A DNA stretch of 64,000 nt. It comes from an uncultured Verrucomicrobiota bacterium (GTDB lineage Bacteria; Verrucomicrobiota; Verrucomicrobiia; Limisphaerales; CAZIFU01). Below are positions 1 to 62,658 of this stretch, one piece after another (position 1 is the stretch's first letter; every line of letters begins with the position of its first letter). Location: contig CAZIFU010000287.1 of NCBI GenBank assembly GCA_964539075.1, positions 15,134 through 79,133 on the forward strand, in the 5' to 3' direction. The notes under the pieces are model-generated. The model saw only the letters and a program-made list of their open reading frames with translations, did not search any database and was not told where the DNA came from. A program made the translations under genes and the position numbers.

Positions 1-1149
1 GCCGCCGCCGTTGCCAAGACCGGCATTCCGGTCTTCGCGCACAAAGGCGAATCACTCGAAGAATACTGGGACTTCACCCTCGCCGCGCTCACACATCCCG
101 GCAACAAAGGCCCGCAACTCATCGTGGACGATGGCGGCGACGCCACGCTCCTCATCCACAAAGGCTATGAACTGGAAAACGGTGACAACTGGATCAACAC
201 GCCCAGCGACAATCACGAAGTCGCCGTCATCAAGGCGTTGTTGAAAAAGGTCGCGAATGAACGCTCCGGCTTCTGGCACGAAGTCGTGAAGGATTGGAAA
301 GGTGTTTCCGAAGAAACCACCACCGGTGTGCATCGCCTCTACCAGATGCTGGAGCGGGGCAAACTTCTCGTGCCCGCCATCAACGTCAACGACTCCGTCA
401 CCAAGTCCAAGTTCGACAACCTCTACGGCTGCCGCGAATCGCTCGCCGACGGCATCAAACGCGCCACCGACGTGATGATCGCCGGCAAGGTCGCGGTCGT
501 CGCGGGCTACGGCGACGTCGGCAAGGGCTGCGCGCATTCGCTCCGCGGATTTGGCGCACGCGTCATCGTCACCGAGATTGACCCCATCAACGCGCTGCAA
601 GCCGCGATGGAAGGTTTTGAAGTCACCACGCTCGAAGACACGCTCGGCATCGGCGACATCTACGTGACGACCACCGGCAATTGCGACGTCATCACGCTCG
701 ATCACATCCTCAAGATGAAGGATCAGGCCATCGTTTGTAACATTGGCCACTTCGACAACGAGATCCAGGTGGAAAAGCTCAACACGCTGAAAGGCGTGAA
801 GAAAATCAACGTCAAGCCGCAGTACGACAAATACGCACTGCCCAACGGCCGCACGATTTATCTGCTCGCCGAAGGCCGCCTCGTGAACCTCGGCTGCGCC
901 ACCGGCCATCCGAGCTTCGTGATGAGCAACAGCTTCACGAACCAGTGCCTCGCGCAACTCGACCTCTGGGCCAAACGCGACACCAACAAGATCGGCGTCT
1001 ATCGTCTGCCCAAGAAGCTGGATGAAGAAGTCGCCCGCCTGCACTTGGATCGCATCGGCGTGAAGCTGACCAAGCTCACGAAGAAACAGGCCGATTACCT
1101 CGGCGTGCCGCCCGATGGCCCATACAAGCCGGAGCACTATCGGTATTGA
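1..1149 (+). CDS. ahcY: S-adenosyl-L-homocysteine hydrolase (5' end outside window)
   Basis: Frame open from base 1; motifs [50 protein letters not shown]-terminal KPEHYRY. Confidence 0.97.
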
Positions 1150-1157
1150 AAATCAGG

Positions 1158-1186
1158 TTGTTTGAATCCGCCGCGTGTGTCATTGT
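1158..1186 (+). promoter_or_regulatory. Putative sigma70 promoter of cassette 1
   Basis: TTGTTT-17 nt-CATTGT with extended TG, ATG 6 nt downstream at 1193. Confidence 0.45.
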
Positions 1187-1192
1187 CATCCC

Positions 1193-1366
1193 ATGAACAG
1201 AGCAATCGTCACCAAGATGTACGGCGCAAAAGAGATTGAAGCGGAAGTCCGCCAAATGCGCCGGACAGCGAAGCGGATACTCGCGTCGAAAAGCGCGACG
1301 CGACGATTCCTTGCGGCCACCGGGATGTACACGCTGAAAGGCGAATTGAAGCCTCAATTCCGCTGA
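1193..1366 (+). CDS. Small basic protein (57 aa), candidate antitoxin
   Basis: ORF with TGATG overlap onto the next gene; start chosen from promoter geometry. Confidence 0.6.
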   Translation: MNRAIVTKMYGAKEIEAEVRQMRRTAKRILASKSATRRFLAATGMYTLKGELKPQFR

Positions 1367-1935
1367 TGCCTTCGCAATCCCTCGCCATCGGCTACCATGG
1401 GTGCGACCGCAGGTTGGTCGAAAAAGTGGTGGCGGGAGCGGCGGAACTCAAGCCGAGTCAAAACGCCTGGGACTGGTTGGGCCACGGCATCTATTTCTGG
1501 GAGGATAGTCGGGCGCGAGCCTTGCGTTGGGCGGAAACCGAGGCCCAACGGCACGGCACCAAAATCAAAACTCCCGCCGTGCTTGGCGCGGTCATCCAAC
1601 TCGGCCATTGCCTCAACCTCACCGAAACCGAGTCGCTCTCCCTCGTCAAAGGCGCGCATGAATTTTATACCAGCGCGTGCGCTTCGACGGGTTCCCCCGC
1701 AGCGACCAATCGCGGCCCGGAACTGCGCGCGCGATTTCTCGACTGCGCGGTGGTCGAAACCCTTCATCAACTTCGCACGAAAGAAAGAAAACAACCGTTC
1801 GACACCGTGCGCGGCTTTTTCTTGGAAGGGCGTGCTTTGTATCCCGGCGCGGGCTTTCGCGAGTTGGATCACATTCAAATCTGCGTACGCTCGCCCAAGC
1901 AGATCATCGGCTACTTTCTGCCGCGAAACGGTTGA
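1366..1935 (+). CDS. Hypothetical protein, probable ADP-ribosyltransferase-like (DUF3990-like) fold, candidate toxin
   Basis: YHG, GxGIYFW, RAxxWA and HIQICV motifs spaced like the H-Y-E/Q triad of ART enzymes; family assignment is inference. Confidence 0.65.
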
Positions 1936-1944
1936 ACGCATTGG

Positions 1945-2053
1945 GCACCTCGACCGCATTGGCGTGAAGCTGACCAGGCTCACGAAGAAACAAGCCGACT
2001 ACCTCGGCGTGCCGCCCGAAGGACCTTACAAGTCGGAGCACTACCGGTATTGA
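1945..2053 (+). pseudogene. Duplicated 3' end of ahcY (109 bp)
   Basis: Aligns to 1041-1149 with 12 mismatches, 9 synonymous; encodes [35 protein letters not shown]. Confidence 0.95.
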
Positions 2054-2263: not shown

Positions 2264-2272
2264 GTTTCGAAA

Positions 2273-2764
2273 TCAACTTAACCCCTGCTGAATCCGCCGC
2301 ATGAGCCGCGGCTCATTCTTCTTCGCAAGCTCATGTTCCCACACGCGCAACACAAGCCAGCCAGCGCCCTGCAACGTGCGCGTCACAAGCGCATCGCGCG
2401 CGATGTTGCCCGCCAGCTTCCGCCGCCAGAAAGCGCGATTGTTCTGCGGCTTCGTCGCGTGCTTCGGACAGCCGTGCCAGAAACAACCGTCCACAAAGAG
2501 TGCGAGCCGCACCTGCCTGAAAACGAAATCGGGGCGCACGGTGAATGGCGGGAAAAACTTCCAACGTCCAACGCTCAACTTTGAACGTTCAATGTTGGAA
2601 GTTGGACGTTGAACGTTTATTCGGATGACCACCTGTCGTCTCCATCCTGAAATCCGGTTCGCGCGCAACACCCGCGCCAGCACCAGTTCCGTGTCCTTGT
2701 TCCCGCGCCCGCGTATGCTCGACATCACCTCCGACCGCTTGGATTTGGAAAAGACATCAGTCAT
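2273..2764 (-). CDS. vsr: Very short patch repair endonuclease with in-frame heptamer-repeat insert
   Basis: MTDVFSKSKRSEVMSSIR, PDFVF, FVDGCFWHGCP, FWRRKL, LRVWEH; insert at about 2558-2617. Confidence 0.9.
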   Translation of the reverse strand: MTDVFSKSKRSEVMSSIRGRGNKDTELVLARVLRANRISGWRRQVVIRINVQRPTSNIERSKLSVGRWKFFPPFTVRPDFVFRQVRLALFVDGCFWHGCPKHATKPQNNRAFWRRKLAGNIARDALVTRTLQGAGWLVLRVWEHELAKKNEPRLMRRIQQGLS

Positions 2765-2775
2765 GAACAAAAATC

Positions 2776-2891
2776 TTTGACGCTAATTTCGCCAATTGTC
2801 GCCAATTCAGATTCGCGCTAATTCGCGCAATTCGCGTCTGAAAACGTCAGCCATTTGTTTTTAACCGCAGATTACGCGGATGAACGCGGAT
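2776..2891. repeat. Degenerate 9-mer-like tandem repeats
   Basis: cgctaattt/cgccaattg/cgccaattc, cgctaattc/cgcaattcg, gattacgcg/gatgaacgcggat; similar tracts at 3938-3970, 4074-4140, 12023-12065. Confidence 0.55.
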
Positions 2892-2929
2892 GCGAAAGGA
2901 GCGCGACCTTCAGGTCGCTTCAACTGTCG

Positions 2930-3187
2930 AACCTCGGCTTTGACATTAAATCTTTCGAGACCGACGGACACGACCGACTGATCGAAGTGAAGACGACTCG
3001 CTTTGGTTCATTGACCCCATTCTTTGCTTCCAAGAATGAAGTGCAAGTTTCCGAAGCGCACGAGGCTGAGTACCAACTTTACCGTCTGTTCAATTTTACC
3101 AGGCAACCGAGACTTTTTGCTTTGCCGGGTTCTCTTCGCAATACCTGTTCCCTTGATCCGATTCAGTTTTCTGCCCTGCCGCGCTGA
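2930..3187 (+). pseudogene. C-terminal fragment of a DUF3883/NO VEIN-C (PD-(D/E)XK-like) protein
   Basis: LGFDIKSFETDGHDRLIEVKTT...FFASKNEV...YQLYRLFNF; N-terminal part replaced by repeats. Confidence 0.6.
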
Positions 3188-3191
3188 ATAG

Positions 3192-3593
3192 CTATTTCAA
3201 CCAGTTGATTTTGATTTCCTTTTCCAGCGGTTTGAAGTCGGTGTCGGCGGTGACGAGTTCGGCTTTTTTGCTTTTGGCTAGCGCGGCGGCAAAAGCATCA
3301 GCCAGGCCGAGGTCGTGCGCGGTTTTCAATTGCGCGGCTGACTCGGCCAGGTCGCGGTCGAGCGGCGCAACGTCCAGTGGCATCGAGTGTTCAAACCGGC
3401 GCGCGGTTTCCCAGCCTTCCTTGCCGTGCTTGTTTTGCATCTTGTAAAGCACTTCCGCCCAGTTGACGGCGCTGATGAGCATGGGCTTGTCGGCGTCGGC
3501 GGCTTTGTGGAAAAGGTCGCGCACCTGTTCCATGCCCGGTTGCCCGAAGAACATGGCCAGCAGCGCCGAGGCGTCGAGAACGGTGGTCTTCAC
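3192..3593 (-). CDS. vapC: PIN-domain VapC toxin
   Basis: VLDASAL, SAVNWAEV, LGLADAF, LVTAD acidic PIN motifs; overlaps upstream antitoxin by 4 nt. Confidence 0.92.
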   Translation of the reverse strand: MKTTVLDASALLAMFFGQPGMEQVRDLFHKAADADKPMLISAVNWAEVLYKMQNKHGKEGWETARRFEHSMPLDVAPLDRDLAESAAQLKTAHDLGLADAFAAALAKSKKAELVTADTDFKPLEKEIKINWLK

Positions 3594-3856
3594 TTGCGGT
3601 TTTCCCGGTCGCGTTCGGCGCGGCGTTCCTCCAGATGCTCCTGCACGACGGATTTTTCGCCGGGCTTCTGTTTGAAGATGCCGCAGAAGGAATCAATGTA
3701 TTCGCGCGTGACGGGCTGGAAGATGATGCGATCACCTTCCTCCACAAAATTGATGCGCGTGCCGGGCTTGATGCCGAACCGGCGGCGGATGGACGAAGGG
3801 ACCACCAACTGGCCTTTGGATGTGACGTAGGCCGAATTCATAACATATTCTTTCAT
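3590..3856 (-). CDS. AbrB/MazE/SpoVT-family antitoxin
   Basis: VTSKGQLVVPSSIRRRFGIKPG swapped-hairpin signature; start at 3856 or 3841. Confidence 0.9.
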   Translation of the reverse strand: MKEYVMNSAYVTSKGQLVVPSSIRRRFGIKPGTRINFVEEGDRIIFQPVTREYIDSFCGIFKQKPGEKSVVQEHLEERRAERDRENRK

Positions 3857-3864
3857 TCGGCCAA

Positions 3865-3893
3865 AGTCTGGCATAGCCAATAATGTAAGGCAA
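3865..3893 (-). promoter_or_regulatory. Putative sigma70 promoter of the AbrB-VapC operon
   Basis: TTGCCT-17 nt-CAGACT with extended TG, 8 nt before ATG 3856. Confidence 0.45.
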
Positions 3894-7833: not shown

Positions 7834-9417
7834 TTACATCCCATCCCGCAGAATCTCCCGCGCGGCGTTGTAGCCGCACGCGCCCATCACGCCGCCGCCC
7901 GGATGCGTGGCCGCTCCGCACAGGTAAAGACCGCGGACCGGCGTGCGATAGTTCGCGTAGCCGGGGACCGGCCGCAGGAAAAAGAGCCGGTGCAGGTGCA
8001 TCGCGCCCTGAAAAATGTTGCCGCCGGTCAGGCCATAACGCCGTTCCATGTCGAGCGGCGAAAGCACCTGGCGGGCAATCACCGCGCGGCGGAAGTTCGG
8101 CGCGTACTCGTTGAGGATGTCGAAGCACCGGTCGGCGAATTTTTCCTTCACGTCATCCCAGCTCGCGCCGCGCAGGTCCGTCGGCGCATACTGGACGAAC
8201 AGGGACATGAGATGTTTGCCCGGCGGCGCGACCGTCGGGTCCACCACGGACGGGATCGTGCCTTCCAGGATCGGGGATTCCGAAGGGCGGCCATATTTCG
8301 CGTCGTCGTAAGCGCGCTCGAGGTAGTCGAACGTGGGCGAGATATGGATCGTGCCGCGATGCTGCGGGCCGGCTTCCCTGCCCGGCAACGCCTTGAAGTC
8401 CGGCAGTTCGCCGAGCGCCACGTTGATTTTGAGCGAGGGGCTGGTGTAATCAATTCCGCGCACGGACTCGACGAAGTCGCCCGGCAGTTCGGCCGGGTCC
8501 ATCAGCTTGAGGAATGTGACATGGGCGTCGGCATTCGACACAACGGCGCCAGCGCGCAGCTCGGTTCCGTCTTCGAGCACGACGCCGGCCGCACGGCCGC
8601 GCTCGACGAGAATTGTTTTCACCGGCGCGTTGCAGCGAATCTCCGCGCCGCGCTCGCGCGCCGCCGCGGCCAGCGCGTTGCTGATGCCGCCCATGCCGCC
8701 GCGCACGTACCCCCAGACGCCGCGCGCGCCGTTGCACTCACCCATGACGTGGTGAAAAAGCACGTAGGCCGTGCCTGGCATGGACGGCGAGGCCATCGCG
8801 CCGATGATCGCGTCGGTGGCCAGCGTGACTTTGAGTTGTTCGGACTCGAACCAGCGGTCGAGAATGGGCCGCGCGGCGCCGGTGAGGATTTCGATCGCCT
8901 GCGCGCCGTCGCGGCCGAGTTTGCGGAAGCGCCAGGCCAGCCGGGCGAGTTGCGCCAGGTCGCGCCACCGTCCCGACCACGGGTCGGGCGGCGTCTGCAG
9001 GAGCGTCGGCTCGATGAAATCGGCCACGCGTTCGAGCATTTTTTCGTAACGGGGCAGCGCCGCGGCGTCCTTCGCGGAAAATTTGCTGATCTCGCGCCGG
9101 TTCAAGTCCGCGTCCGGTCCGAGCAACAGGTGACGGCCATCGGGGAACGGCGTGAACGAGGAAGGATTGCGCGGCAGCAGCTCGTAGCCGTGGCGCGGGA
9201 GATCGAGGTCGCGGATGATTTCGGGCCGCAACAGGCTGTTCACGTAGGCGGCGGTGGAGACTTTGAAGCCGGGCCAGATTTCCTCCGTCACGCAGGCGCC
9301 GCCGACCAGTTCGCGCCGTTCCAGCACGAGCACGCGCCGGCCCGCGCGGGCCAGGTAGGCCGCCGTCACCAGTCCGTTGTGCCCCGCGCCGATGATGAGA
9401 ATGTCGTAGTGAGCCAT
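7834..9417 (-). CDS. NAD(P)/FAD-dependent oxidoreductase, phytoene desaturase/PYROXD2-like
   Basis: IIGAGHNGLVTAAYLA, VLERR, C-terminal LYLCGAATHPGGGVMG. Confidence 0.9.
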   Translation of the reverse strand: MAHYDILIIGAGHNGLVTAAYLARAGRRVLVLERRELVGGACVTEEIWPGFKVSTAAYVNSLLRPEIIRDLDLPRHGYELLPRNPSSFTPFPDGRHLLLGPDADLNRREISKFSAKDAAALPRYEKMLERVADFIEPTLLQTPPDPWSGRWRDLAQLARLAWRFRKLGRDGAQAIEILTGAARPILDRWFESEQLKVTLATDAIIGAMASPSMPGTAYVLFHHVMGECNGARGVWGYVRGGMGGISNALAAAARERGAEIRCNAPVKTILVERGRAAGVVLEDGTELRAGAVVSNADAHVTFLKLMDPAELPGDFVESVRGIDYTSPSLKINVALGELPDFKALPGREAGPQHRGTIHISPTFDYLERAYDDAKYGRPSESPILEGTIPSVVDPTVAPPGKHLMSLFVQYAPTDLRGASWDDVKEKFADRCFDILNEYAPNFRRAVIARQVLSPLDMERRYGLTGGNIFQGAMHLHRLFFLRPVPGYANYRTPVRGLYLCGAATHPGGGVMGACGYNAAREILRDGM

Positions 9418-9553
9418 GACCACGGCCATCCAACCAGAACTGCGCGTAAAAACGAAGGAGGATTCGTACAAGCCGGCAGGGAACGGCGGGGAACGGTTGA
9501 CTTTCGCGGTTTCTCCCGTAGCGTCGCTCGCAAGTTGCGCCGCCGCGCCCGAC

Positions 9554-51265: not shown

Positions 51266-51415
51266 AAAATGACGAATGACGAATGACGAATGACGAAAGA
51301 ATGACGAAGCTCGAAGCCCCAAGACGCGTGCGCAAATCGTTCGCGTTGGCATCGGCTGTTTCGACATTCGTCATTTGGAATTCCTTGGTCATTAGGATTT
51401 GGTCATTCGTCATTG
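51266..51415. repeat. (GAATGAC)n heptamer hairpin
   Basis: Four to five GAATGAC units and an inverted GTCATT(C/T) arm; supplies the ATPase stop codon. Confidence 0.8.
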
Positions 51416-52365
51416 CCCCGAGCGCCGTTGATGCGATCACTTGTCAAAGCGACGAAAACATCCTCCAGCGACGGCGCAATCGGCCGGATGTCCGCGCGCG
51501 CGATGCCCACCTTCGTCAGTTCCTCGCGCATGAGTTGCTCGGACATGTCCTGCTCGATCAGCAGGTGCATGGATTGGCCGAAGACCGTCGCGGCCTTCAC
51601 CCCCGGCAGCCGCCGCAACGACTGCAAGCCCACCGTCACGTGCTCGCACGTCACGTCCACCCGGCGTGTGCCGGGCGGGTTGACGACGCGGAGTTGCTTG
51701 AGCGCATCCGGCTCGCCGCACACCACCAGTTTGGAGAAGGAGATGTAGCCCACGTGCGAACAGCGTTCCGCCTCGTCCATGTAATGCGTCGTGATGAACA
51801 GCGTGATCCCCTTGCTGGAAAACTCGAAGAGCAAATCCCATAACTCGCGCCGCGCCACCGGATCAATGCCCGCCGTCGGCTCGTCGAGAAACAGCACGCT
51901 CGGCTTGTGTACCAACGAGCAGGCCATCGCGAGCCGTTGCCGCCAACCGCCGGAGAGCAGGCCGGCGCGGCGAGCGAGGTAGGGTTCGAGGTGCGTGAGC
52001 GTGATAAGTTCGTCGCGCCGCTGCGCCAGCGCCGCGCCGCGCAGCCCGTAGAGCCGCGAGTAAAACGTGATGTTCTCGTGCGCCGTCAATTCGTCGTAGA
52101 GCGAGAACTTCTGCGACATGTAACCGATGAGCGACTTGATGTGCTCCGTCTGCCGCGCCACGTCGTAGCCGGCGATGGTCGCGCGCCCCTCGGACGGTTC
52201 CAGCAGCCCGCACAACATGCGGATGACCGTGGACTTGCCCGAGCCGTTGGGACCGAGGAAGCCGAAGATGGACCCTTTGGCGACGCTGAACGACACGCCG
52301 TCCACGGCGGTGAAATGTCCAAACCGCTTCGTCAGGTTTTCACATTCGATCATCGCGTCGGGCAT
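51403..52365 (-). CDS. ABC transporter ATP-binding protein
   Basis: [33 protein letters not shown]. Confidence 0.93.
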   Translation of the reverse strand: MPDAMIECENLTKRFGHFTAVDGVSFSVAKGSIFGFLGPNGSGKSTVIRMLCGLLEPSEGRATIAGYDVARQTEHIKSLIGYMSQKFSLYDELTAHENITFYSRLYGLRGAALAQRRDELITLTHLEPYLARRAGLLSGGWRQRLAMACSLVHKPSVLFLDEPTAGIDPVARRELWDLLFEFSSKGITLFITTHYMDEAERCSHVGYISFSKLVVCGEPDALKQLRVVNPPGTRRVDVTCEHVTVGLQSLRRLPGVKAATVFGQSMHLLIEQDMSEQLMREELTKVGIARADIRPIAPSLEDVFVALTSDRINGARGNDE

Positions 52366-52373: not shown

Positions 52374-52991
52374 TCACTCGGTTGTTACCTCGAACCCCTC
52401 AAAGCGCTGTTCCCAAACTTGCATCAACGGTCGCCAGTCATTCCCGTCGCCAGCCCTCAGTGCGGCGAAATAATTGGACTCGCCTGCGGTCTCCGTGGGA
52501 ACAAGGTCAACCGGCGGAAGTTCCAACCGGCGGAGCAATTCACGAAGAAAGAGACGGGTGACACGACCATTGAAATCGTTGAACGGATGGATCGAGAGCA
52601 GGCGCCCCTCGGCAAACGCGAGCATTTCCAGGAGCAGGTCATCCATCTTCCTGCTGGCATTTTGGAGACGCACACGAAGGTTCTCGCTGTAGTCACGCAT
52701 GAGGATGGGCACGCGAAACGGCGGTGGTGGGTTGTGCTCGCCGACCGTCACCTCGGCGTCGCGCCACCGACCCGCCCATTCGGGCACCAGATCAGCGGCG
52801 ATTTCAGAATGAAAACGCAGGATGAGTTCGCCACCGGGGTCTTGGGCAGCAAAAGCGCCTGAAGCAATGGCGGTTTCCACGCGGAGCACACGTTCGGCCA
52901 GCAGCGGCGCCAACTGCGAATAACTCAGGAGGCCGCTTGTGGTTTGAATGAAGCGGGTCGCTCCGCCTGGCGGTGTAGTTTCTCCAGCCAT
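52374..52991 (-). CDS. Fic-domain protein (class I toxin candidate)
   Basis: HPFNDFNGRVTR, a variant of HPFx(D/E)GNGRxxR. Confidence 0.88.
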   Translation of the reverse strand: MAGETTPPGGATRFIQTTSGLLSYSQLAPLLAERVLRVETAIASGAFAAQDPGGELILRFHSEIAADLVPEWAGRWRDAEVTVGEHNPPPPFRVPILMRDYSENLRVRLQNASRKMDDLLLEMLAFAEGRLLSIHPFNDFNGRVTRLFLRELLRRLELPPVDLVPTETAGESNYFAALRAGDGNDWRPLMQVWEQRFEGFEVTTE

Positions 52992-53122
52992 GATTGGTCA
53001 ACGGCCTCCTTCTCGAACGCCATGGACAGGGCCACCTGGCGCGGAATCCGCCGCCAACAAATCTCCTGCCGGGCTTCAGCATTGAGCCGCCGCCAGCGTT
53101 GGATGGTTTCAGTCCATTTCAT
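52925..53122 (-). CDS. Small protein, candidate FicA-like antitoxin
   Basis: Directly upstream of and overlapping fic; SMAFEK resembles the (S/T)xxxE(G/N) inhibitory motif. Confidence 0.6.
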   Translation of the reverse strand: MKWTETIQRWRRLNAEARQEICWRRIPRQVALSMAFEKEAVDQSWLEKLHRQAERPASFKPQAAS

Positions 53123-53128
53123 GCCGGA

Positions 53129-53157
53129 ACATTACTGCCGATGCGGTAGCCAGACAA
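53129..53157 (-). promoter_or_regulatory. Putative sigma70 promoter of the Fic cassette
   Basis: TTGTCT-17 nt-TAATGT, ATG 6 nt downstream. Confidence 0.6.
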
Positions 53158-53159
53158 GA

Positions 53160-53324
53160 CTACAATCCGCATAACATGCGGATGACTGTGGACTTGCCCG
53201 AGCCATTGGGACCGAGGAAGCCGAAGATGGACCCCTTGGCCACGCTGAACGATACGCCATCCACAGCGGTGAAATGCCCGAACCGCTTGGTCAGGTTTTC
53301 GCAGTGGATCATCGCGTCGGGCAT
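53160..53324 (-). pseudogene. Duplicated, truncated 5' end of the ABC ATPase gene
   Basis: 54 codons match 52204-52365 with 16 mismatches, 14 synonymous, then TAG. Confidence 0.95.
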
Positions 53325-53332: not shown

Positions 53333-54791
53333 CTATTCGGGTAGGCGCAGTTTCCAGAGAAACTCGTCCGTTGCGATGTAAACGGAATTCTTGGCAACCA
53401 CAGGCGAATGGTAAAGCCCCAGAGGCAACTGAAAGCGGCCAAGACATTTCTTTTTCCTGCCGGCCGCGAACACAATCAAGTCACCGTCATCAGTTCCGAC
53501 CAGAACCTTGCCGTCTGCAAGGCAGGGCGAGCCATAGTAACAACCGCGCGCGCCGTCAGCGAGTCGGCTGTGCCAGATTTCTTCCCCGGTCTTTTCATCC
53601 AGGGCAAATAAAACGGCCTGCCAGCCCAAGACATAAACGATTCCGTCGGCCACGGTGGCCGAGCCGTAAGTGCTGCCGAACTCTGGATGTTGAAATGTCC
53701 AGCGCACGGCTTTCGCAGTAGCGTCGCCACGATGCCCGAGGGCAATGGCGTAAAGCGGCGCGTTGGTTTGAGGTTGCTCAAAGTCATTGTTCAGACCGAC
53801 ATAGATCGTATCGCGATGGACAGTCGGAGTTCCTACGAAGAAATTTTTCCGGTTTTCGGGATACAAACCGGATTCCACTGCTCGCCAGTCGTTCGCCGCA
53901 GGTTCCGTGCAATTGGCCTTCCAAATCTCCCGTCCAGTCTTCGGTTCAAATCCATACAACCATCCATCCCCCCCCGGGAAAAATCACCTGGTCCACGCCG
54001 TTCACTCGCGCAACGGCGGGCGAAGACCACTGGCCATACATGATTGCCTGGCCCGGCGCGTGACTGCTCCAAACCACTTTGCCGCTCTCCTTGTCCACCG
54101 CCAGAAATGACGGCGCGGAACTCGGTTCGCCTGACGGACGGCAACCTTCGCCGGTAACGCAAAACACCAAGTTGCCCGGCACCATGGGCGAGCAAATCGG
54201 ATTGCCTACGTCGCCCGCATCCCGCTTGAAGACGCCGAGCTCTCGAACCATGTCGAGTTTCCAGATGAAGTCGGCGTCGGTCGGTCCGGTGAGGTCCTCC
54301 GACGTGAAAGGGCTGTTGTTCTTGCCGTCGCGGAAACCCTCCATGTCCACGCAGACCAACTCGCCACGATTGCTCACATACAACGCGCGCCCGCCTTCCA
54401 CCCACGGGCGCGAATTGATGAACCCCAGCATGTCGTTGACACGTTCTGGAAGTCTGGGATGGGCTGACTGCCACAGAATCTCGCCCGTCTGGCTGTTGAA
54501 GCACTTCAGCGCACCACCCTCTTCCGCGATCTTGTGAGTGCGCGGATCCTCTCTTTGAAAACTCGTGCCAACCAGAATCTTTTCGCGCGAGAGCGCTACT
54601 GCGCCGGAGTTCCAGCCAATCTTCGCGCGCCAGATCACATACTTGCCGCCATCCTTGGTGCAATCCCAAACCGGAGCTTTTTCCACCTCGGGGTCTATTT
54701 GAGCGCGAAGAGCGTTCGCAAGGGACAGCATCAGGACGAACGTCAGCGCGAGGCAACGAAACGTTCTTGATCGGCAGTTCTTTCGTTTCAT
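53333..54791 (-). pseudogene. PQQ-binding-like (BamB-type) beta-propeller protein split by a +1 frameshift in a G8 tract
   Basis: ORFs 53946-54791 and 53333-53959 join as FPGGDGWLYGFEPKTG if the G run at 53968-53975 is G7. Confidence 0.8.
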
Positions 54792-54806: not shown

Positions 54807-54831
54807 TTACTTTGCCACGATCGGGAACGTC
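54807..54831 (-). repeat. Short diverged copy of the hlyD 3' end
   Basis: g-acg-ttc-ccg-atc-gtg-gca-aag-taa (TFPIVAK*) versus 55539-55563 g-acg-ttt-ccc-ggc-ttg-acg-aag-tga (TFPGLTK*); 17/25 nt identical. Confidence 0.45.
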
Positions 54832-55180
54832 ACGATTCCGGCGGAGGATTTGCGGCCAGATAAGCCTCCAAGCGCGCGATCAAGGGTGGAAGGTCTCGTT
54901 GCACGGTGTCCCACACGACATCCAGGTCCACATCGTCGTAGTCGTGGATGAGAATGTTCCGCATCGCGGTGATCAGCTTCCAGGGGATCTCGGGGAAAGT
55001 TTTGAGGGCTTCGGGAGACAGTCGGCGGGCGGCTTCGCCGATGATCTCAAACTTGCGGTTCACCGCTTCATACTTTTCTTCGTTTGCCTTGAAATCCTCG
55101 CGGGAGACGCCGCTGGTGAATCGCCGGATGGCTTTGGCAGCTTCGAGAATATCCTCCAGATAAGCATTATCCTTCGGCAT
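54830..55180 (-). CDS. hepT: HEPN (DUF86) RNase toxin
   Basis: EIIGEAA, IPWKLITAMRNILIHDY (RX4H), DVVWDTV. Confidence 0.92.
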   Translation of the reverse strand: MPKDNAYLEDILEAAKAIRRFTSGVSREDFKANEEKYEAVNRKFEIIGEAARRLSPEALKTFPEIPWKLITAMRNILIHDYDDVDLDVVWDTVQRDLPPLIARLEAYLAANPPPES

Positions 55181-55475
55181 AAATCGGCGTTGCCGTGGAA
55201 AGGATGGAATGTTTACGGTAGCGATTGCGGCTGCGCTCAATGGCGCGGCGGCTCACCAAATCCACCGGACGACCGAACAACTCTGCTAACTTTTCCTGCA
55301 TATCCGCCCAATCGAGCAGCGTCGGACGCGCATCTGAACGAAGCGTGGCCAGCAGATCAACGTCGCTGTCACCGCGAAAATCATCGCGCAGCGCCGAGCC
55401 GAACAATTCGAGCCGGGCAATGCCGCGTTCCCGGCAGAATCGTCCAAGCTTCTCGCGATTGAAGTTCAGCTTCAT
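55167..55475 (-). CDS. mntA: Minimal nucleotidyltransferase antitoxin
   Basis: LFGSALRDDFRGDSDVDLL, GRPVDLV. Confidence 0.92.
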   Translation of the reverse strand: MKLNFNREKLGRFCRERGIARLELFGSALRDDFRGDSDVDLLATLRSDARPTLLDWADMQEKLAELFGRPVDLVSRRAIERSRNRYRKHSILSTATPIYAEG

Positions 55476-55481
55476 GCTGCT

Positions 55482-55538: not shown

Positions 55539-56501
55539 TCACTTCGTCAAGCCGGGAAACGTCGCCTCCACCGACATGCCGGCGCGCAGTTGGCCGTCGG
55601 GATTCTCCAGCCGCAGCTTCACGCCGAAGACCTGCTTGATGCGCTCGTCGGCGGTCTGCACGTTGCGCGGGGTGAACTCGGCGGCGCGGCCAATCTGCTC
55701 GACCGCGCCCTTGAACTCCCTGTCGGGGAACGCGTCGGCGCGAGCCGTTACGGCGTCCCCAAGTTGGATGTGTCCCAGCCACGGTTGCGGCACGAAGACG
55801 CGCACCCAAAGATGATTGGTCAACAGCAGCGTGGCCACCTCGCGGTTCGGCGCGAGCACGTCGCCCGGCTTCACGCTCAACACTTCGAGCACGCAATTGG
55901 TCGGCGCCGCGATGGTCATCTCGCGGAGCTGCGCGTCGGTCTCGGCCAGTTGCGCGCGCGCCTGAGCCAGCCGCTCCGGCCGCGTGCCCGCCAGCAGCAG
56001 GTCGTAACGCGCCTTGGCGGCGGCGGCGCTTTTCTCCCGCGTGGTCGCCTGGCTCACCGCGCGGTCGCGCTCGGTTTCAGAAACCGTCTTGTCGCGGAAC
56101 AATTCCTCAGCGCGCTTGCGCTCGGTGCGGGCGAGGTCCAGTTCGGCCAGTTGCGCCTCCCACTCGGCCTGGACGGCGGCGATTTCCTCCTTGCGCGGGC
56201 CGGCTTCCCACTCGGCGAGCATCGCGGCCATTTGTTCGCGGCGCGCGCGGAGTTCGGCGGCGTCGAGCTGGACGATGGGCTGGCCGGTTTGCAGTGCGTC
56301 GCCTTCCTGCGCAAAAATTTTCTCCACGCGCCCGCCGTAGCGCGAGGCGACGCGGGCCTCGTCGGTTTCAATCGTGCCGGAGACGCCCGCCCGGTCCGCG
56401 GGGAAAGCCGCCCGGTCGCAGGCCGCCAGCAAAAGCAGCGGCAGGAGCGCGGCGCCGAGTGTGATGCCAGAATTGATGTTCACCCGGCGCGAACATAGCA
56501 A
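55539..56501 (-). CDS. HlyD-family secretion adaptor (YbhG-like lipoprotein)
   Basis: LLAAC lipobox, VSGTIE, VASRYGGRV, AEFTPRNVQT, LRAGMSV. Confidence 0.9.
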   Translation of the reverse strand: MLCSRRVNINSGITLGAALLPLLLLAACDRAAFPADRAGVSGTIETDEARVASRYGGRVEKIFAQEGDALQTGQPIVQLDAAELRARREQMAAMLAEWEAGPRKEEIAAVQAEWEAQLAELDLARTERKRAEELFRDKTVSETERDRAVSQATTREKSAAAAKARYDLLLAGTRPERLAQARAQLAETDAQLREMTIAAPTNCVLEVLSVKPGDVLAPNREVATLLLTNHLWVRVFVPQPWLGHIQLGDAVTARADAFPDREFKGAVEQIGRAAEFTPRNVQTADERIKQVFGVKLRLENPDGQLRAGMSVEATFPGLTK

Positions 56502-59592: not shown

Positions 59593-59598
59593 AGCGGG

Positions 59599-61815
59599 TC
59601 AACGCACGGCGCGTTTGCGTTTGCCGCCGCGCGGGTAGCGGACTTTGACAGGGGCGGCGGGCGACTGCATTCCCAGTGCACCGCGTTTGAGTTCGTTGAT
59701 CTGATCGCGGAGCAGCGCGGCTTTTTCGAACTCCAGGTTGTTGGCGGCTTCGAGCATTTCGGCTTCGAGTTCGCGGAGGGTCTCGGTCACGTCGAAGTTG
59801 CCGCCGGCTTCGTTGATCACGGCCGCGGCGCGGGCGGAGCCTTCGCGATACACCGCCAGGCTGTCCTCGACGGCGCGGCTGACGCTGCGCGGGGTGATGT
59901 GGTGCTCGCGGTTGTAGGCGAGCTGCTTCTCGCGGCGGTAGTTGGAAATGGCCAGAAACTTTTGAATGCTCTGCGTCATCACGTCGGCGTAAAGGATCAC
60001 TTCACCGTTCAGATGGCGTGCGGCGCGGCCGGCGGTCTGAATCAAACTCGTCTCGCTCCGGAGAAAACCTTCCTTGTCAGCGTCGAGAATGGCGACGAGC
60101 GACACCTCCGGCAGATCGAGGCCTTCGCGCAGCAGGTTGATGCCGACGAGCACGTCGAACTCGCCCTTGCGGAGCCCGCGCAGAATCTCGACACGCTCGA
60201 TGGCGTCAATCTCGCTGTGCAGGTAACGGACGTTGATGCCGATGTCGCGGAGGTAATCGGTCAGTTCCTCGGCGGTGCGCTTGGTCAGCGTGGTGACGAG
60301 CACGCGCTCTTTTTGCTCGACCCGTTTGCGCGCCTCGTTGATGAGGTCATCAATCTGGCCCTTGAGCGGTTTGACGGTGATGACCGGGTCCACCAGGCCG
60401 GTGGGGCGGACGACCTGTTCGACGACGCCGGAATTTCCACTGCCCAGGCCCTCGCTTTGCGGGACCACCCTCTCCCCACCCGATGGGGAGAGGGACGGGG
60501 TGAGGGGTGCTCTTGTTTCTTCCGTAGCAGCCGACGTGAGGAGGCTCTGATCAATGTCCTTTGAAGAATGAGCCTCCTCACGTCGGCTGCTACGAACTTG
60601 AAGGGCACTCTCCCCTGCCCATTGAATTTCCCGACCGCCTGGCGTGGCGCTGACATAAATGGTCTGGTTCTGGTGGCCTTGAAACTCGCCGAAGTTCAGG
60701 GGGCGATTGTCGAGCGCGCTGGGGAGCCGGAAACCGTGCTCGACGAGGACGGTCTTGCGCGAGCGGTCGCCTTCGTACATCCCGCCGATCTGCGGGACGG
60801 TGGCGTGCGACTCGTCAATCACAAGCAGGAAATCCGGCGGGAAAAATTCCATCAAGGTGCAGGGCCGCGAACCGGCCGGCCGGCCGGTGATGTGGCGCGA
60901 ATAATTTTCAATGCCGGAACAAAAGCCCATCTCCTCCATCATCTCCAGGTCGTACTCGGTGCGCATCTTGACGCGCTGGGCTTCAAGCAGTTTGCCGTGC
61001 TTTTCGAACCACGCGATGCGGTCGCCCAGTTCCTCGCGGATGGTCAGGACGGCGCGCTTTGTTTTTTCAGCGGGCGTGACGAATTGTTTGCCGGGGAAAA
61101 CGGTGACCACTTCCAGGCCCTCGATTTTGTCACCGGTGAGCGGCTCGAAGCGGGTCAGGCGCTCCACCCGGTCGCCGAAAAACTCGATGCGCAACGCGTC
61201 TTCCACGTAGGCGGGGCACAGTTCGACGGTGTCGCCGCGCACGCGGAACTGGCCGCGGGTGAACTCGATGTCGTTGCGGTTGTATTGCAGGTCCACCAAA
61301 CGGAGGAGGAACTGGTCGCGGGTCAGTTCCTGGCCGGCGCGCAAGTGGACGAGCATCGTCTCGTAATCCTCCCGGCTGCCGATGCCATAGATGCACGAGA
61401 CGCTGGCGACCACGATCACGTCGCGTCGCGCGAAGAGCGAACTCATCGTCGAGAGCCGCATCCGCTCGATCTCCTCGTTCACGCTGGAATCCTTCTCGAT
61501 GAAGGTGTCGGTGCGCGGGATGTAGGCTTCGGGCTGGTAATAATCGAAATAACTCACGAAATACTCGACGGCGTTGCGCGGAAAAAAACTTTTGAATTCG
61601 GCGTAAAGCTGCGCCGCGAGCGTCTTGTTGTGCGAGATGACGAGCGTGGGCTTGTTTACGTTTTGGATGGCATTGGCGATGGTGAAGGTCTTGCCGGAGC
61701 CGGTGACGCCGAGCAGCACCTGATGCTTCGCGCCGGACAACAGCCCCTCGGTCAGCTTCGCAATCGCTTGCGGCTGGTCACCGGCGGGCGCGTATGGGGC
61801 GACGAGTTCGAACAT
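59599..61815 (-). CDS. uvrB: Excinuclease ABC subunit B with ~60-aa repeat-derived insert
   Basis: [50 protein letters not shown]-terminal UVR domain. Confidence 0.97.
60459..60593. repeat. In-frame GTAG REP hairpin plus CCCTCACCCC element inside uvrB
   Basis: Perfect 23-bp arms at 60524-60546 and 60571-60593; second element at about 60461-60507. Confidence 0.9.
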
Positions 61816-61870
61816 TTCTGATCGCGCGGGTTTTCCTCGGGCAAGCGCAAAGAGACGATTGCACGGCGAT

Positions 61871-62158
61871 TCAAATAGCCTTGGCCAGTTGGCGGCGCTT
61901 CATGCCCAGGCGAAAAAGGGTTTGCAGCAGCAGGTCAATGGATACCGTGGCATCGGCCGCCTCCATCTTGGCAACACGGGATTGACTGGTTTTCAAGCGC
62001 GCCGCCAAGGCCGTCTGCGTGAGTCCCTGTTCCTGTCGCAAAGCGCGCACCTGACGGGCGAGCGCCCGTCGCATCTCGATGAATTCCAGGTCGGCGTCGG
62101 ACAGGTCTAGGAAGTCCTGCACCGAGCCTTCCACCCAACCGTTTTTCAACTTTTTCAT
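61871..62158 (-). CDS. XRE/HTH antitoxin
   Basis: [24 protein letters not shown]; overlaps toxin by 4 nt. Confidence 0.9.
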
Positions 62159-62487
62159 GGCTGGCTTGCTTCGTAGAGTTTCACCCGCCGCCGGCAGTTT
62201 TGGATTACTGCGTCCGGCGTTTTTTCAGTCTTCTTCTCAAACACGTCCAGAACCACGACGGCGTCCGCTTCGAGGCGGTAAATCACCCGCCACGCTTTGT
62301 TCCGGTCGTTCACGCGCAACTCGTGGCAGCGCGGACCGATGATCGGCATCGGGCGGGAGTGGGGCAGACCCAGGTTCTCGCCGTCCTGCAAGTCTCGCAA
62401 GAGCATCCCGATTTCCCGCCGGGCTTCCACGCTCATCGGCGGGGTTTTCACCTCGCCGTGCAGCCAGCGCAGGGGCTTGCCGTTCAT
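62155..62487 (-). CDS. RelE-like (Gp49/DUF891-type) toxin
   Basis: LPHSRPMPIIGPRCHELRV, WRVIYR, FEKKTEKTP. Confidence 0.9.
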   Translation of the reverse strand: MNGKPLRWLHGEVKTPPMSVEARREIGMLLRDLQDGENLGLPHSRPMPIIGPRCHELRVNDRNKAWRVIYRLEADAVVVLDVFEKKTEKTPDAVIQNCRRRVKLYEASQP

Positions 62488-62497
62488 CGTGCGATGG

Positions 62498-62526
62498 AAG
62501 CTATGTCAGAACAGGTATAGTGTCAA
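62498..62526 (-). promoter_or_regulatory. Putative sigma70 promoter of the RelE-XRE cassette
   Basis: TTGACA-17 nt-TAGCTT, 10 nt before ATG. Confidence 0.65.
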
Positions 62527-62533
62527 CCGCGTG

Positions 62534-62658
62534 CCCCGTGATACCGACCAGCTTCTGGTGCTTCGCGCCGGACAACAGCCCGTCGGTCCGGTTCGCAACT
62601 CCGAAAGCTTTCGAGGCCGGTCACCGGCGGGTTTGAACGATGCGGACAACTCAAACCT
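62534..62658 (-). pseudogene. Degenerate duplicate of the uvrB 5' end
   Basis: RFELSASFKPAGD...[+8 nt]...[22 protein letters not shown] versus Uvr[14 protein letters not shown]...[22 protein letters not shown]; exact 23-nt match tgcttcgcgccggacaacagccc. Confidence 0.9.

Follow-up and report, generated by a model that had tools for sequence, protein, structure and literature searches.

Toxin-antitoxin cassettes between duplicated gene ends in an uncultured Verrucomicrobiota bacterium and their probable spread by host homologous recombination

How can a module of only two genes come to lie between an intact housekeeping gene and a second, partial copy of that gene's end, if it brings no recombination enzyme of its own? 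This question is raised by a stretch of 64,000 nucleotides (contig CAZIFU010000287.1, hereafter the window) from an uncultured Verrucomicrobiota bacterium, for which the initial annotation had listed four such sites. Three of them, at the 3' end of ahcY, the 5' end of an ABC-ATPase gene and the 5' end of uvrB, stand, whereas the fourth, at the 3' end of hlyD, falls away because its 25-bp match is at chance level. The three remaining pairs are the sole dispersed non-REP direct repeats of the whole 64-kb window, and each insert consists of two small toxin-antitoxin (TA)-like genes and nothing else. These structures are real and far from random. As had been claimed, all cassettes are co-oriented with their host gene, and integrase or transposase genes as well as terminal inverted repeats are absent from the three inserts. 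In contrast, the promoter proposed for each cassette was not recovered: when scanned for the sigma-70 consensus, the spacers ahead of the cassettes gave no match, and the only one obtained for the three regions falls within the Fic gene, on the strand opposite to it. The interpretation we regard as probable from the sequence comparisons is that of recombinase-free addiction or defence mini-cassettes, which would have been joined to a gene end illegitimately and then spread, and also lost, by homologous recombination of the host.

At the first site, the host gene ahcY (S-adenosylhomocysteine hydrolase) is intact as far as its open reading frame and translation can be followed (3' part at 124..1149, plus strand, running off the window start) and colinear with the AdoHcyase-annotated genes of the relatives L165 and L172. 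Its functional terminus, the last 36 codons plus stop (copy A, 1041..1149, +), is repeated as a displaced, non-functional copy B (1945..2053, +), which is followed by native ahcY downstream sequence; this DNA is homologous to that after the real ahcY stop codon in L172. The copies align over 109 bp without gaps (97/109 identical, BLAST E 2e-34), and 9 of the 12 mismatches are synonymous, 3 non-synonymous. The cassette begins with a conserved upstream block starting TGAAAATCAGGTTGTT (1147..1192, +), which overlaps the ahcY stop codon and, with a length of about 50 nt, precedes the antitoxin in six contexts (L162, L164, L165, L172, L176 and the window). It is followed by a 57-aa antitoxin-like gene (1193..1366, +), whose stop overlaps the start of a 189-aa toxin-like gene (1366..1935, +). 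Family searches with the 57-aa frame gave no match; in relatives it is invariably the upstream partner of the 189-aa gene. The 189-aa protein has 4253 homologs, and no family was found for it in Pfam and NCBIfam searches. Its AlphaFold2 model (pLDDT 80) finds its best Foldseek matches in exotoxin A, PARP1, Tpt1, NatT and RES, H11, Y43 and E154 are invariant, and the predicted fold is ADP-ribosyltransferase-like. The junction spacer ACGCATTGG (1936..1944, +, read from the sequence) repeats CGCATTGG, which is present again 11 nt further, inside copy B, and appears to be a micro-duplication at an illegitimate joint.

An assembly artefact, i.e. two strains collapsed into one contig with false duplications as the result, is hardly credible. 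The window probably stems from a metagenome-assembled contig, and contig L001 from an independent Logan assembly ends inside both repeats, which suggests strain variation. Nevertheless, this same contig covers the site independently from inside copy A through the cassette to inside copy B with 0 differences, which argues against a chimera. Furthermore, the like architecture recurs in many independent assemblies (L165/166, L172-175, L176/177, L178-187, L188/189), and the copies, with 12-16 mismatches over approximately 110-160 bp, have no long stretches of exact identity on which an assembler could go astray.

The second site lies on the minus strand, where the intact host gene encodes an ABC-transporter ATPase (51403..52365, Pfam ABC_tran, real start at 52365) with orthologs at 89-94% identity. 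Its real 5' end (copy A', 52204-52365, -) is repeated in the displaced copy B' (53163..53324, -), which runs from a pseudo start at 53324 through 54 codons to a stop. Among 162 in-frame bases the copies differ at 16, and 14 of these mismatches are synonymous; compared with the real gene of L167, a 150-nt block of copy B' (codons 5-54) encodes identical residues with 13 synonymous differences. In a multiple alignment the left end of the cassette, with its GGATTG / GTCTTGTCTGG junction (53123..53162, -), is common to the window, L178 and L188. The same relatives conserve a 65-aa frame upstream of the Fic gene (52925..53122, -), which contains the motif SMAFEK; family searches gave no match for it, and it is possibly a FicA/VbhA-type antitoxin. 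The Fic-domain toxin itself (205 aa, 52374..52991, -, motif HPFNDFNGR, Pfam Fic E 1.4e-11) has 880 homologs at E<=1e-20, nearly all of them 205 aa long among the top matches listed.

At the third site, the intact uvrB gene (59599..61815, -, with its real 5' copy at 61700-61815) was recognized by sequence identity, its product being 72-75% identical to UvrB of other Verrucomicrobiota. The displaced pseudo 5' end (approximately 62523..62655, -) repeats about 117-130 bp with 79% identity over 97 aligned bases, but the start codon is gone and an 8-nt insertion causes a frameshift. Between the copies lie genes for a HigB/Gp49-family toxin (110 aa, 62155..62487, -, Pfam Gp49 E 7e-14) and an HTH antitoxin of the Xre/HigA type (95 aa, 61871..62158, -, Pfam HTH_37 and HTH_3), which is matched by NCBIfam TA antitoxin models below their cut-offs.

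The initial annotation had read the copies at sites 1 and 2 as diverged functional alleles and not as a decayed local duplicate, and this reading holds. Taking both sites together, 23/28 mismatches are synonymous (P~1e-5 against a duplication with one-sided decay), and the changes that are derived in the pseudo-copies, polarised with L165, L167, L168 and L169, are mostly synonymous as well. A purely local history, in which a single illegitimate entry duplicated the recipient's own target and the copies diverged in place, is difficult to reconcile with both results, and also with a breakpoint within the displaced copy of L176/L177 (see below). On the other hand, such a history is what L167 would lead one to expect. 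There, with an ATPase 91% identical to that of the window, the ABC site holds another two-gene cassette, one gene of which is DUF6036-like nucleotidyltransferase; the pseudo-copy is 190 nt long, its junction differs from that of the window, and 10/12 mismatches to the real copy are non-synonymous, as expected for the decay of an initially identical duplication. The frameshifted, start-less copy at site 3 and the near-identical repeats of published restriction-modification (RM) cases (PMC2853133) point in the same direction. Hence, local duplication may still describe the founding event, but it does not account for sites 1 and 2 as they are now, and as the full account we consider it quite improbable.

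The initial annotation had also proposed entry and spread by homologous recombination via the duplicated terminus, and this is visible in relatives. Between L176 and L177, only 1/816 bases differs from the cassette through the spacer to nt 29 of the displaced copy (99.9% identity), whereas 5 of the next 24 bases differ, which alters four codons synonymously as well as the stop codon (TAA/TGA), and the DNA past the stop codon is unrelated. Identity that turns into divergence within the repeat locates a crossover in the interior of the displaced copy. A comparable picture emerges for the Fic unit, which together with a pseudo-ABC end is found again at the ABC 5' end in L178-187 and L188/189. The cassette-side junction with its GGATTG microhomology is the same in the window, L178 and L188 lineages, each pseudo-ABC copy resembles the real copy of its own genome, and homology across lineages begins exactly at the pseudo-copy, with unrelated genes upstream. 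An empty ABC site, whose existence had been suggested as a check, was found in L169-171 (order hlyD-X-ABC, ABC ATPase 94% identical). Members of the site-1 cassette family follow ahcY in three lineages, the pseudo-copies measuring 109, 49 and approximately 30 nt. The closest relative of the window's cassette (toxin 85% identical) lies behind glycine dehydrogenase, with some 55 nt from the end of this gene present twice. In L176 an array of the form A-cassette-B-gene-C-gene is present.

Could these patterns instead go back to a single old insertion at each site, passed on by vertical descent while gene conversion kept the copies similar and precise loss caused the patchiness? Gene and cassette units are colinear between lineages at 76-82% nucleotide identity (76% for ahcY plus cassette in the window and L165, 82% for the pseudo-ABC, Fic and ABC unit in L178 and L188), a degree of similarity that is also compatible with a long period of joint vertical inheritance and losses here and there. 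The Fic junction common to three lineages and the resemblance of the pseudo-copies to the real copy of their own genome speak for it too, and a sliding-window scan of the ABC operon detected no clear imported block beside the cassette. However, conversion plus neutral decay predicts mostly non-synonymous differences, contrary to the 14/16 and 9/12 synonymous ones of the window, and the 150-nt block of the pseudo-ABC copy has 0 amino-acid differences from the functional gene of a relative. Likewise, vertical descent does not accommodate the L176/L177 pair, in which the cassette is almost identical yet the right half of the displaced copy is divergent and the downstream DNA unrelated, nor the occurrence of one cassette family at two different host genes. 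Moreover, the nearer relatives by ABC identity (94%, 91%, 89%) are without the Fic cassette, while more distant ones possess it. We therefore judge this scenario unlikely.

A site-specific recombinase acting in trans, or remnants of larger integrase-encoding elements of the e14/phage 21 type that supplied a replacement end, would by analogy explain that the element-side copy restores the gene and that homology stops at the coding boundary, as with gene-end-targeting elements; the conserved cassette-side junction of the Fic family would also fit. In the four 3'-end cases whose copies still reach the stop codon (window site 1, L165, L148, L032) the homology stops 0-4 nt from it, in L176 approximately 8 nt before it, and in the 5'-end cases at the start codon. 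Compact operons and selection for an intact gene explain this boundary only partly. Nevertheless, no integrase was found in or beside the sites in the window and approximately ten related lineages, including searches of the gene tables of related loci for integrase families. At least six unrelated genes serve as targets (ahcY, ABC ATPase, uvrB, glycine dehydrogenase, inositol monophosphatase, GluRS), the repeat length differs even at the same site (109/49/~30 nt at ahcY, 162 vs 190 nt at ABC), and the L176/L177 breakpoint is interior to the repeat and not at a fixed core. With cassettes only 9-55 nt from the repeats, there is no room for deleted element DNA. Such an enzyme thus seems very unlikely.

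The relatives indicate that the cassettes bring along no enzyme for their movement and travel by homologous recombination of the host, and the life cycle we prefer may be outlined as follows. A cassette of approximately 0.7-0.8 kb, consisting of two overlapping genes behind a short upstream block, sits exactly at the host gene end, so that the gene is intact and the partial terminus copy lies beyond the cassette. Originally, we infer, an illegitimate, microhomology-type recombination would join the cassette beside a gene end and produce the duplicated terminus, for which homology-facilitated illegitimate recombination or the RM-type 'insertion with long target duplication' are candidates. Thereafter, as the comparisons suggest, the conserved gene and the displaced terminus, a portable arm, could serve as homology arms; alternatively, the two repeats might recombine and free a circle that re-enters by single crossover. 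In either way the cassette could enter related genomes which have the host gene, whatever DNA lies beyond. With crossovers falling inside it, the displaced copy would come to consist partly or wholly of the recipient's allele, and because of this the differences between the copies would be mostly synonymous. Recombination between the copies would delete the cassette precisely and leave an empty site, whereas repeated entry would build cassette arrays with terminus copies between them. The TA content, finally, would select against loss through the flanking repeats.

The phenomenon appears to be general across lineages: in L148, an unrelated bacterium, the 3' end of an inositol monophosphatase gene is repeated over 146 bp on both sides of an Unstab_antitox gene and a toxin-sized ORF, and in the archaeon L032 a PIN/VapC pair is flanked by 205-bp copies of the 3' end of a GluRS-type gene; the apparent TA enrichment comes from a small, unsystematic sample. 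Several members of the site-1 family (L162/163, L164, L191-200) lack any flanking duplication, hence it is not obligatory.

Parts of this cycle resemble known systems. The elements e14 and phage 21 insert in icd and bring a replacement gene end. Here, too, inserted DNA may have brought a diverged functional end and displaced the native one, but e14 and phage 21 are large, encode integrases and use a fixed crossover core. Homology-facilitated illegitimate recombination was reportedly described in 2002 (de Vries and Wackernagel; Prudhomme et al.), and minimal mobile elements are reported from Neisseria (Saunders and Snyder, 2002; Snyder et al., 2007). The latter are small cassettes that differ from strain to strain and lack mobility genes; their exchange proceeds through homologous recombination in the conserved genes on either side. 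Our cassettes are likewise small, free of mobility genes and apparently exchanged homologously. However, minimal mobile elements, a term in current use (PMC3787668 and others), need two different conserved flanking genes and thus synteny, whereas here the duplicated piece of the first gene is the second arm, so that one conserved gene suffices and the far flank is arbitrary, as seen in L176 vs L177 and in the window vs L178 vs L188. Homology-facilitated illegitimate recombination combines a one-sided homologous anchor with a microhomology joint and needs no dedicated enzyme (PMC3240628). The short duplications at the junctions, CGCATTGG for site 1 and GGATTG for the Fic family, would fit this process, but it is laboratory-defined, usually deletes recipient DNA, and is not known to have been described as a source of a reusable displaced terminus or of TA spread.

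The suggestion of an undescribed route was too strong, since integrase-free insertion has been published for RM modules and a circle plus homologous recombination model for Rhs tips. RM gene complexes show 'insertion with long target duplication' (Furuta, Abe and Kobayashi, 2010, PMC2853133, where Nobusato et al., 2000, Gene 259:99, is cited for it), with repeats of variable length (46-423 bp), of which a related genome with an empty site has just one copy and which may reach into the 3' end of an adjacent gene; invasion, amplification via the repeats and release were proposed as life cycle (PMC2853133). Both are small addiction-type units without transposase or integrase between long, variable direct repeats. 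They differ in that the cargo here consists of TA-like pairs, the repeats are restricted to the coding end of a conserved gene, with the start or stop codon as their limit, sites 1 and 2 have diverged alleles instead of near-identical target duplications, and relatives show crossovers within the displaced copy. A 2013 review of the same school names the route for RM systems only and does not mention TA (PMC3874152). For Rhs proteins, C-terminal displacement (Jackson et al., 2009, PMC2935791) and orphan CdiA-CT/CdiI modules (Poole et al., 2011, PMC3150448) are known, and the model assumes that homologous recombination excises and inserts units with an attached core fragment via a circular intermediate (PMC2935791). 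Here as there, the 3' end of a conserved gene is the place where a toxin plus immunity unit comes in; the old end is shifted downstream with a conserved-core fragment, and displaced units form arrays. Yet the Rhs unit is translationally fused to its carrier and changes the toxic tip, whereas the cassettes are free-standing operons at unrelated housekeeping genes whose protein remains unchanged, and for the 5'-end versions (ABC ATPase, uvrB) no counterpart is known among Rhs genes. Text searches of the literature found no description of stand-alone TA pairs at housekeeping gene ends via such a route; it is known for RM and Rhs toxin genes, and here it would concern toxin-antitoxin pairs.

Two further TA pairs of the window are without terminus duplication. 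One is VapBC, the fifth pair (3192-3880). The other follows hlyD (55539-56501, -) and comprises an MNT gene (55475..55167, -, Pfam NTP_transf_2) and a HEPN/HepT gene (55186..54830, -, HepT 44 bits, below the 60-bit cut-off). The 25-bp match was rejected as a duplication, being equalled or beaten in 385/2000 shuffles, and a second hlyD 3' copy was not found at the protein level. The MNT/HEPN pair is nevertheless an insertion relative to L169, where hlyD directly precedes the next operon gene.

Self-comparison of the window, which stems from a verrucomicrobial genome and has a G+C content of 62.6%, detected only three pairs of dispersed direct repeats outside a cluster of REP-like repeats, and each pair flanks one two-gene cassette. 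At site 1, the last 36 codons and the stop of ahcY (1041-1149, plus strand) have a second copy at 1945-2053 that matches at 97 of 109 bases, and ORFs for a 57-aa (1193-1366) and a 189-aa protein (1366-1935) lie between the repeats on the same strand. Site 2 is on the minus strand, where the first 54 codons of an ABC-transporter ATPase gene (start 52365) recur as a pseudo-copy of 162 bp (53324-53163) that ends in a stop; a 65-aa ORF and the gene of a 205-aa Fic protein are located between these 5' copies. At site 3, also on the minus strand, the first ~40 codons of uvrB (start 61815) are duplicated over ~117 bp, and the cargo consists of a Gp49/HigB toxin and an HTH antitoxin. In the pseudo-uvrB (~62655-62523), the start codon is lost and 8 nt are inserted. 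The initial annotation counted a fourth site at the 3' end of hlyD. This one has to be given up, because the 25-bp match past the MNT/HEPN gene pair was reached in 385 of 2000 shuffles and is best regarded as chance; in that pair, a possible type VII MNT/HepT system (nucleotidyltransferase antitoxin, HEPN RNase toxin), NTP_transf_2 scores 48 bits, above its cut-off, and HepT 44 bits, below its cut-off of 60 bits.

The inserts at sites 1-3 are real and recombinase-free. Every one of them consists of just two small genes, either of TA type or without a family, and contains neither transposase nor integrase; a sequence search found no terminal inverted repeats at the cassettes, in agreement with their initial description. 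On the other hand, the promoter assigned there to each cassette was not recovered, since a consensus scan of the upstream spacers revealed no sigma-70-type promoter. The AhcY host protein ends normally (...EHYRY, then stop), and the cassettes use their own start codons without in-frame fusion to the carrier genes. No extra protein-level copies of the four termini were found elsewhere in the window. An independent contig of 969 bp, L001 (Logan SRR9952630), is identical to window 1054-2022 and therefore spans both site-1 junctions. It begins 13 nt inside the first ahcY copy and stops 31 nt short of the end of the second; these ends would fit strain variants in the sample that have a common cassette and different flanks, and low coverage is equally possible.

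Concerning the gene products, the label TA-like appears reasonable for all three cassettes on the basis of Pfam, motif, fold and gene-pairing findings, though it is proven for none. The site-3 pair has the layout of a type II HigB/HigA system with a predicted toxin (Pfam Gp49, E 7e-14; HTH_3 and HTH_37 in the partner), and its genes overlap at 62155-62158. The site-2 Fic protein contains the motif HPFNDFNGR (HPFNDFNGRVTR), which fits the Fic pattern HxFx(D/E)GNGRxxR, reaches 45 bits with Pfam Fic compared to a cut-off of 24 bits, and gives a weak match to TIGR02613, the "mobile mystery protein B". In its 65-aa partner, the stretch SMAFEK (S-x-x-x-E, then K) is near the inhibitory motif (S/T)xxxE(G/N) of FicA/VbhA, and from this resemblance we infer only a possible FicA/VbhA-type antitoxin (class I). 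Pfam and NCBIfam searches gave no match for the site-1 pair, the 65-aa ORF and two further small genes discussed below, a 104-aa gene in locus L167 and a 96-aa ORF in locus L148. The 189-aa protein is a member of a family that counts 4253 database proteins and has no Pfam or NCBIfam model; the listed top matches (P0001-P0120) are mostly ~190 aa long, and in the loci examined the 57-aa gene is always found upstream of the family gene. With 36 homologs as input, AlphaFold2 gave a model (pLDDT 80) for which Foldseek retrieved nearly exclusively ADP-ribosyltransferases, among them exotoxin A, PARP1, Tpt1 and the TA toxins NatT and RES, although these matches are weak (best E 8e-4, TM 0.45). The residues H11, Y43 and E154 are invariant in the 36 homologs and may correspond to the catalytic H-Y-E triad of ADP-ribosyltransferases (ART). 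The family is a candidate new TA or defence toxin family with a predicted ART-like fold.

An obvious question is whether the displaced gene ends are local duplicates that decayed in place. With one selected and one decaying copy, ~38% of the differences are expected to be synonymous. At sites 1 and 2, the copies diverge by 9-11%, mainly at synonymous positions, and are therefore alleles; 23 of the 28 mismatches are synonymous (P=1e-5 against one-sided decay), and the separate counts of 9/12 at site 1 and 14/16 at site 2 are exactly those given in the initial annotation. Polarisation with relatives points in the same direction, because the changes derived in the site-2 pseudo-copy are all synonymous and those derived in the site-1 pseudo-copy mostly so. 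Over a 150-nt block (codons 5-54), the site-2 pseudo-copy specifies the same residues as the functional gene of a relative, from which it differs at 13 synonymous positions. The synonymous excess and the polarised changes thus indicate that the displaced copies at these two sites are alleles of functional genes which were part of working genes until recently, and that the two copies at each site come from different, related lineages. The earlier preference for diverged alleles over local decay is supported for sites 1 and 2. Plain decay seems to describe two other cases better, namely the site-3 pseudo-copy and the displaced ABC end in L167, where 10 of 12 mismatches are non-synonymous. We also tried to recognise the native copy by its distance to relatives, and both copies turned out to be equidistant.

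The single-copy comparison with an empty site covers site 2, since closer public relatives of the window ABC-ATPase exist (89-94% protein identity). Sister genomes with an empty site had been proposed as a check, and L169-171 provide them: in these loci (ATPase 94% identical), hlyD, a 223-aa gene and the ATPase gene form a tight operon with a single 5' end and without a cassette. In a further relative, L167 (ATPase 91%; JGI Ga0604610_0000095, 8908-9979), the same ABC 5' site is occupied by a different two-gene cassette with a different junction, in which a pseudo 5' end of 190 nt comes first and the cargo is the 104-aa gene and a gene of a 175-aa DUF6036-like nucleotidyltransferase, just below the Pfam cut-off. 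Relatives selected by UvrB were of no use for empty sites, as among the matches listed from GTDB and JGI none exceeded 75% identity or shared synteny; the nearest species representatives in GTDB reached 72% and the nearest JGI contig 75%. Regarding the gene content next to the site, L167 has an unannotated 222-aa gene between hlyD and the pseudo-ABC copy. The window has in the position of the 223-aa gene of the relatives, between hlyD and the ABC ATPase, two adjacent PQQ/beta-propeller ORFs (53946-54791 and 53333-53959, minus strand, together 53333-54791) that overlap by 14 nt and may represent one frameshifted gene.

Two more lineages have the Fic cassette and, with it, a pseudo-ABC end: L178-187, which are one population in ten assemblies, and L188/189. 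Their Fic proteins are 83-84% identical to that of the window. The cassette-side junction is common to all three lineages and built on GGATTG microhomology, a motif still duplicated in L178 and L188. Each pseudo-copy of the Fic lineages shows codons specific to the real copy in its own genome, and it is precisely with the pseudo-copy that homology between the lineages sets in. Farther upstream, the lineages have unrelated genes, coding for PQQ repeat proteins in the window, for Bro-N in L178 and for Kelch in L188. A sliding-window analysis of identity between the ABC operon and five relatives revealed no clear breakpoint of an imported block beside the cassette.

The ART-fold cassette family of site 1 permits a broader comparison. 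Directly 3' of ahcY it occurs in the window, in L165/166 (toxin 68% identical to that of the window, pseudo-ahcY of 49 nt, with L165-specific codons in L165) and in L172-175 (toxin 80% identical, ~30 nt of pseudo-ahcY, left boundary as in the window). The closest relative, L176/L177 with a toxin identity of 85%, is located after another gene, the product of which resembles, over its 31 C-terminal residues, the end of glycine dehydrogenase (E 5e-8), and the cassette is followed there by a copy of the last ~55 nt of this host gene. Hence, one cassette family is found at the ends of two different genes. A block upstream of the cassette genes (TGAAAATCAKGTTGTT...) is kept in six contexts and conservation stops at the toxin stop codon, which characterises the cassette as a discrete unit placed at several gene ends. 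Other family members have no flanking duplication (L162/163, L164, L191-200), and an identical family toxin present on 21 contigs (P0044) showed one context throughout and zero duplications. Beyond the displaced ahcY end, the window contains a small defence/addiction islet (2273-3880) with a Vsr-type endonuclease (2273-2770, minus strand), a NOV_C protein (2855-3187, plus strand) and VapBC (3192-3880, minus strand). L165 has FRG and GmrSD genes at that position, so that the 3' flank of ahcY looks like a variable hotspot.

L176 and L177 were obtained from different samples. From the cassette through the spacer to nt 29 of the displaced glycine-dehydrogenase end, they differ at only 1 of 816 bases. 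Among the next 24 bases, 5 differ, corresponding to four synonymous codon changes and a TAA/TGA difference in the stop codon, and beyond the stop codon the two sequences are unrelated. We read this pattern as a direct sign of a crossover inside the displaced copy. Moreover, L176 (ENA ERZ28573581 scaffold_214084, 1-1498) is an array in which the 3' end of the glycine dehydrogenase gene appears three times (41-97, 904-957, 1241-1294) in the order gene end, ART-fold cassette, copy, 68-aa gene, copy and next gene (start 1311). The core of the initial proposal, recombination through a homologous gene terminus, gains support from this breakpoint and from the empty ABC site.

How such loci might arise and spread can be outlined as follows. 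A cassette would be founded by an illegitimate, microhomology-type joint beside a gene end, either through homology-facilitated illegitimate recombination or through long target duplication as described for RM systems; such a joint would agree with the micro-duplications seen at the junctions, CGCATTGG at site 1 and GGATTG for the Fic cassettes. It would then spread as a linear fragment by RecA-type recombination, with the conserved gene as one arm and the displaced terminus as the other. Alternatively, a circle released by the two repeats could re-enter via a single crossover. By both routes the cassette could enter any genome having the gene, the displaced copy would become a chimera of donor and recipient alleles, scar-free loss would be possible and arrays could be built up. 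Persistence may result from the toxin, which would select against loss through the repeats. The exact end of homology at start or stop codons can be attributed to the compactness of operons and to selection that keeps the gene intact in the 5' cases, but in only some of the 3' cases. A role of the RAYT/REP system found in the window was also considered and discarded, since the REP repeats bear no relation to the junctions of the cassettes.

The closest published phenomenon is the insertion with long target duplication of RM systems, which is integrase-free, produces repeats in the order of 100 bp and was hypothesised to follow a cycle of invasion, amplification and release (PMC2853133); a later review applies this route to RM systems only (PMC3874152). 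Insertions of this type are flanked by direct repeats of more than 30 bp, typically ~50-400 bp, and those at sites 1-3 measure 109, 162 and ~117 bp. Both situations have in common the long direct repeats, the single-copy empty site (here site 2) and the lack of a mobility gene in the insert. However, the cargo here is Fic, HigBA and an ART-fold pair instead of an RM system, and in contrast to RM insertions, whose repeats duplicate the recipient's own target and start out near-identical, the copies at sites 1 and 2 are alleles, whereas L167 and site 3 are compatible with that type. The closest published mechanism is the C-terminal displacement of Rhs proteins, in which homologous recombination excises or inserts toxin tips attached to core fragments, with a proposed circle (PMC2935791). 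As in Rhs/CDI systems, the displaced unit at sites 1-3 includes a fragment of the carrier gene, and the three-copy array of L176 is a further similarity, but no in-frame toxin fusion replaces the C-terminal domain of the carrier and the host proteins end normally. Minimal mobile elements of Neisseria likewise move by recombination only, but they need two conserved flanking genes, whereas the far flank here varies between lineages, whose homology has its limit at the displaced copy of the terminus.

Elements of the e14/phage 21 type differ in that they encode a tyrosine or serine integrase, and none is present at the window sites or in the gene tables of the related loci. A fixed crossover core should also keep the repeats of an element family equally long at a given site. 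Unlike this, the repeat at ahcY measures 109, 49 or ~30 nt and the L176/L177 breakpoint lies in the repeat interior, although the Fic family is alike in part as it keeps one junction. The claim of a completely undescribed route is too strong given the published RM (PMC2853133) and Rhs (PMC2935791) cases. What differs from the known systems is the free-standing TA pair, the unchanged housekeeping carrier at its 5' or 3' end, and the displaced terminus as second arm. Our literature search found no description of a displaced-terminus route for TA systems, and absence there is not proof of absence.

Similar arrangements were seen in 160 loci fetched with UvrB (2.3 Mb), which served as an unplanned control without a formal enrichment test. 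In L148, 146-bp repeats (94% identical) of an inositol monophosphatase 3' end enclose an Unstab_antitox gene and the adjacent, toxin-sized 96-aa ORF. In L032, from a Methanoperedens archaeon, a small gene and a PIN/VapC gene are flanked by 205-bp copies (95% identical) of a class-I (Glu/Gln) tRNA synthetase 3' end, with mainly synonymous mismatches. In both loci, homology stops 2-4 nt past the stop codon. Two loci with non-TA or unknown cargo may be further cases of this architecture: L110 (1056-2541), where a perfect 447-bp repeat of the GAPDH 3' end and downstream DNA surrounds an unknown 139-aa ORF, and L065 (12954-13780) from a cyanobacterium, where 146-bp repeats (87% identical) surround a DUF6887 gene. 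Other spaced repeats in the control loci were mostly paralogous domains or tandem genes, and L079 (rhomboid, DUF3738) and L056 were unconvincing as examples. Judged from these sequences, it is suggestive that TA cassettes between terminus repeats occur more widely, including in an archaeon.

It has long been asked how chromosomal TA and small defence operons move when no plasmid, phage, transposon or integron carries them, and these loci offer a testable answer, in which the displaced gene end makes the cassette a substrate for ordinary homologous recombination. It could then enter any genome with the gene independent of synteny and leave without a scar, which would explain the patchy distribution of TA systems among close relatives, "hot" gene ends and gene-fragment pseudogenes beside TA pairs. 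The signature is searchable in all genomes, as a gene terminus repeated within ~1-3 kb would point to new addiction or defence cassettes; the unannotated family with predicted ART fold and more than 4000 members is one example. A more far-reaching reading, which we regard as rather doubtful at present, is that terminus copies act as general recombination sites requiring RecA only, comparable to an integron without integrase, at which small TA and defence cassettes are captured, stacked into arrays as in L176, excised precisely and passed across lineages with different neighbouring genes, in several bacterial phyla and in archaea. If true, this would define a distinct class of self-propagating mobile elements whose sole "mobility gene" is a piece of the host's gene.

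The window contains further repeats of different kinds. A REP-like palindromic unit of 24 nt (GTAGCCGCCGACGTCAGTCGGCGC) is present in ten copies in three clusters (42153-42304, 43345-43501 and 44147-44202), which surround a 208-aa ORF (43507-44133, minus strand) with an IS200/RAYT-like HxH motif (PNHVHLV) and no Pfam match at 1e-3; the whole resembles a REP/RAYT system. Within uvrB (gene 59599-61815, minus strand), a diverged REP unit is found in frame as an inverted doublet (60524-60593), and the UvrB protein of the window is ~60-70 residues longer than those of relatives (738 aa vs ~670). Finally, two intergenic tandem duplications of ~167 bp were observed, one with internal palindromes (39167-39331/39345-39508, 83% identical) and one (15127-15293/15295-15459, 79%) that contains the palindrome TTTGTCGCATATGCGACAAA and may represent an operator region in two copies.
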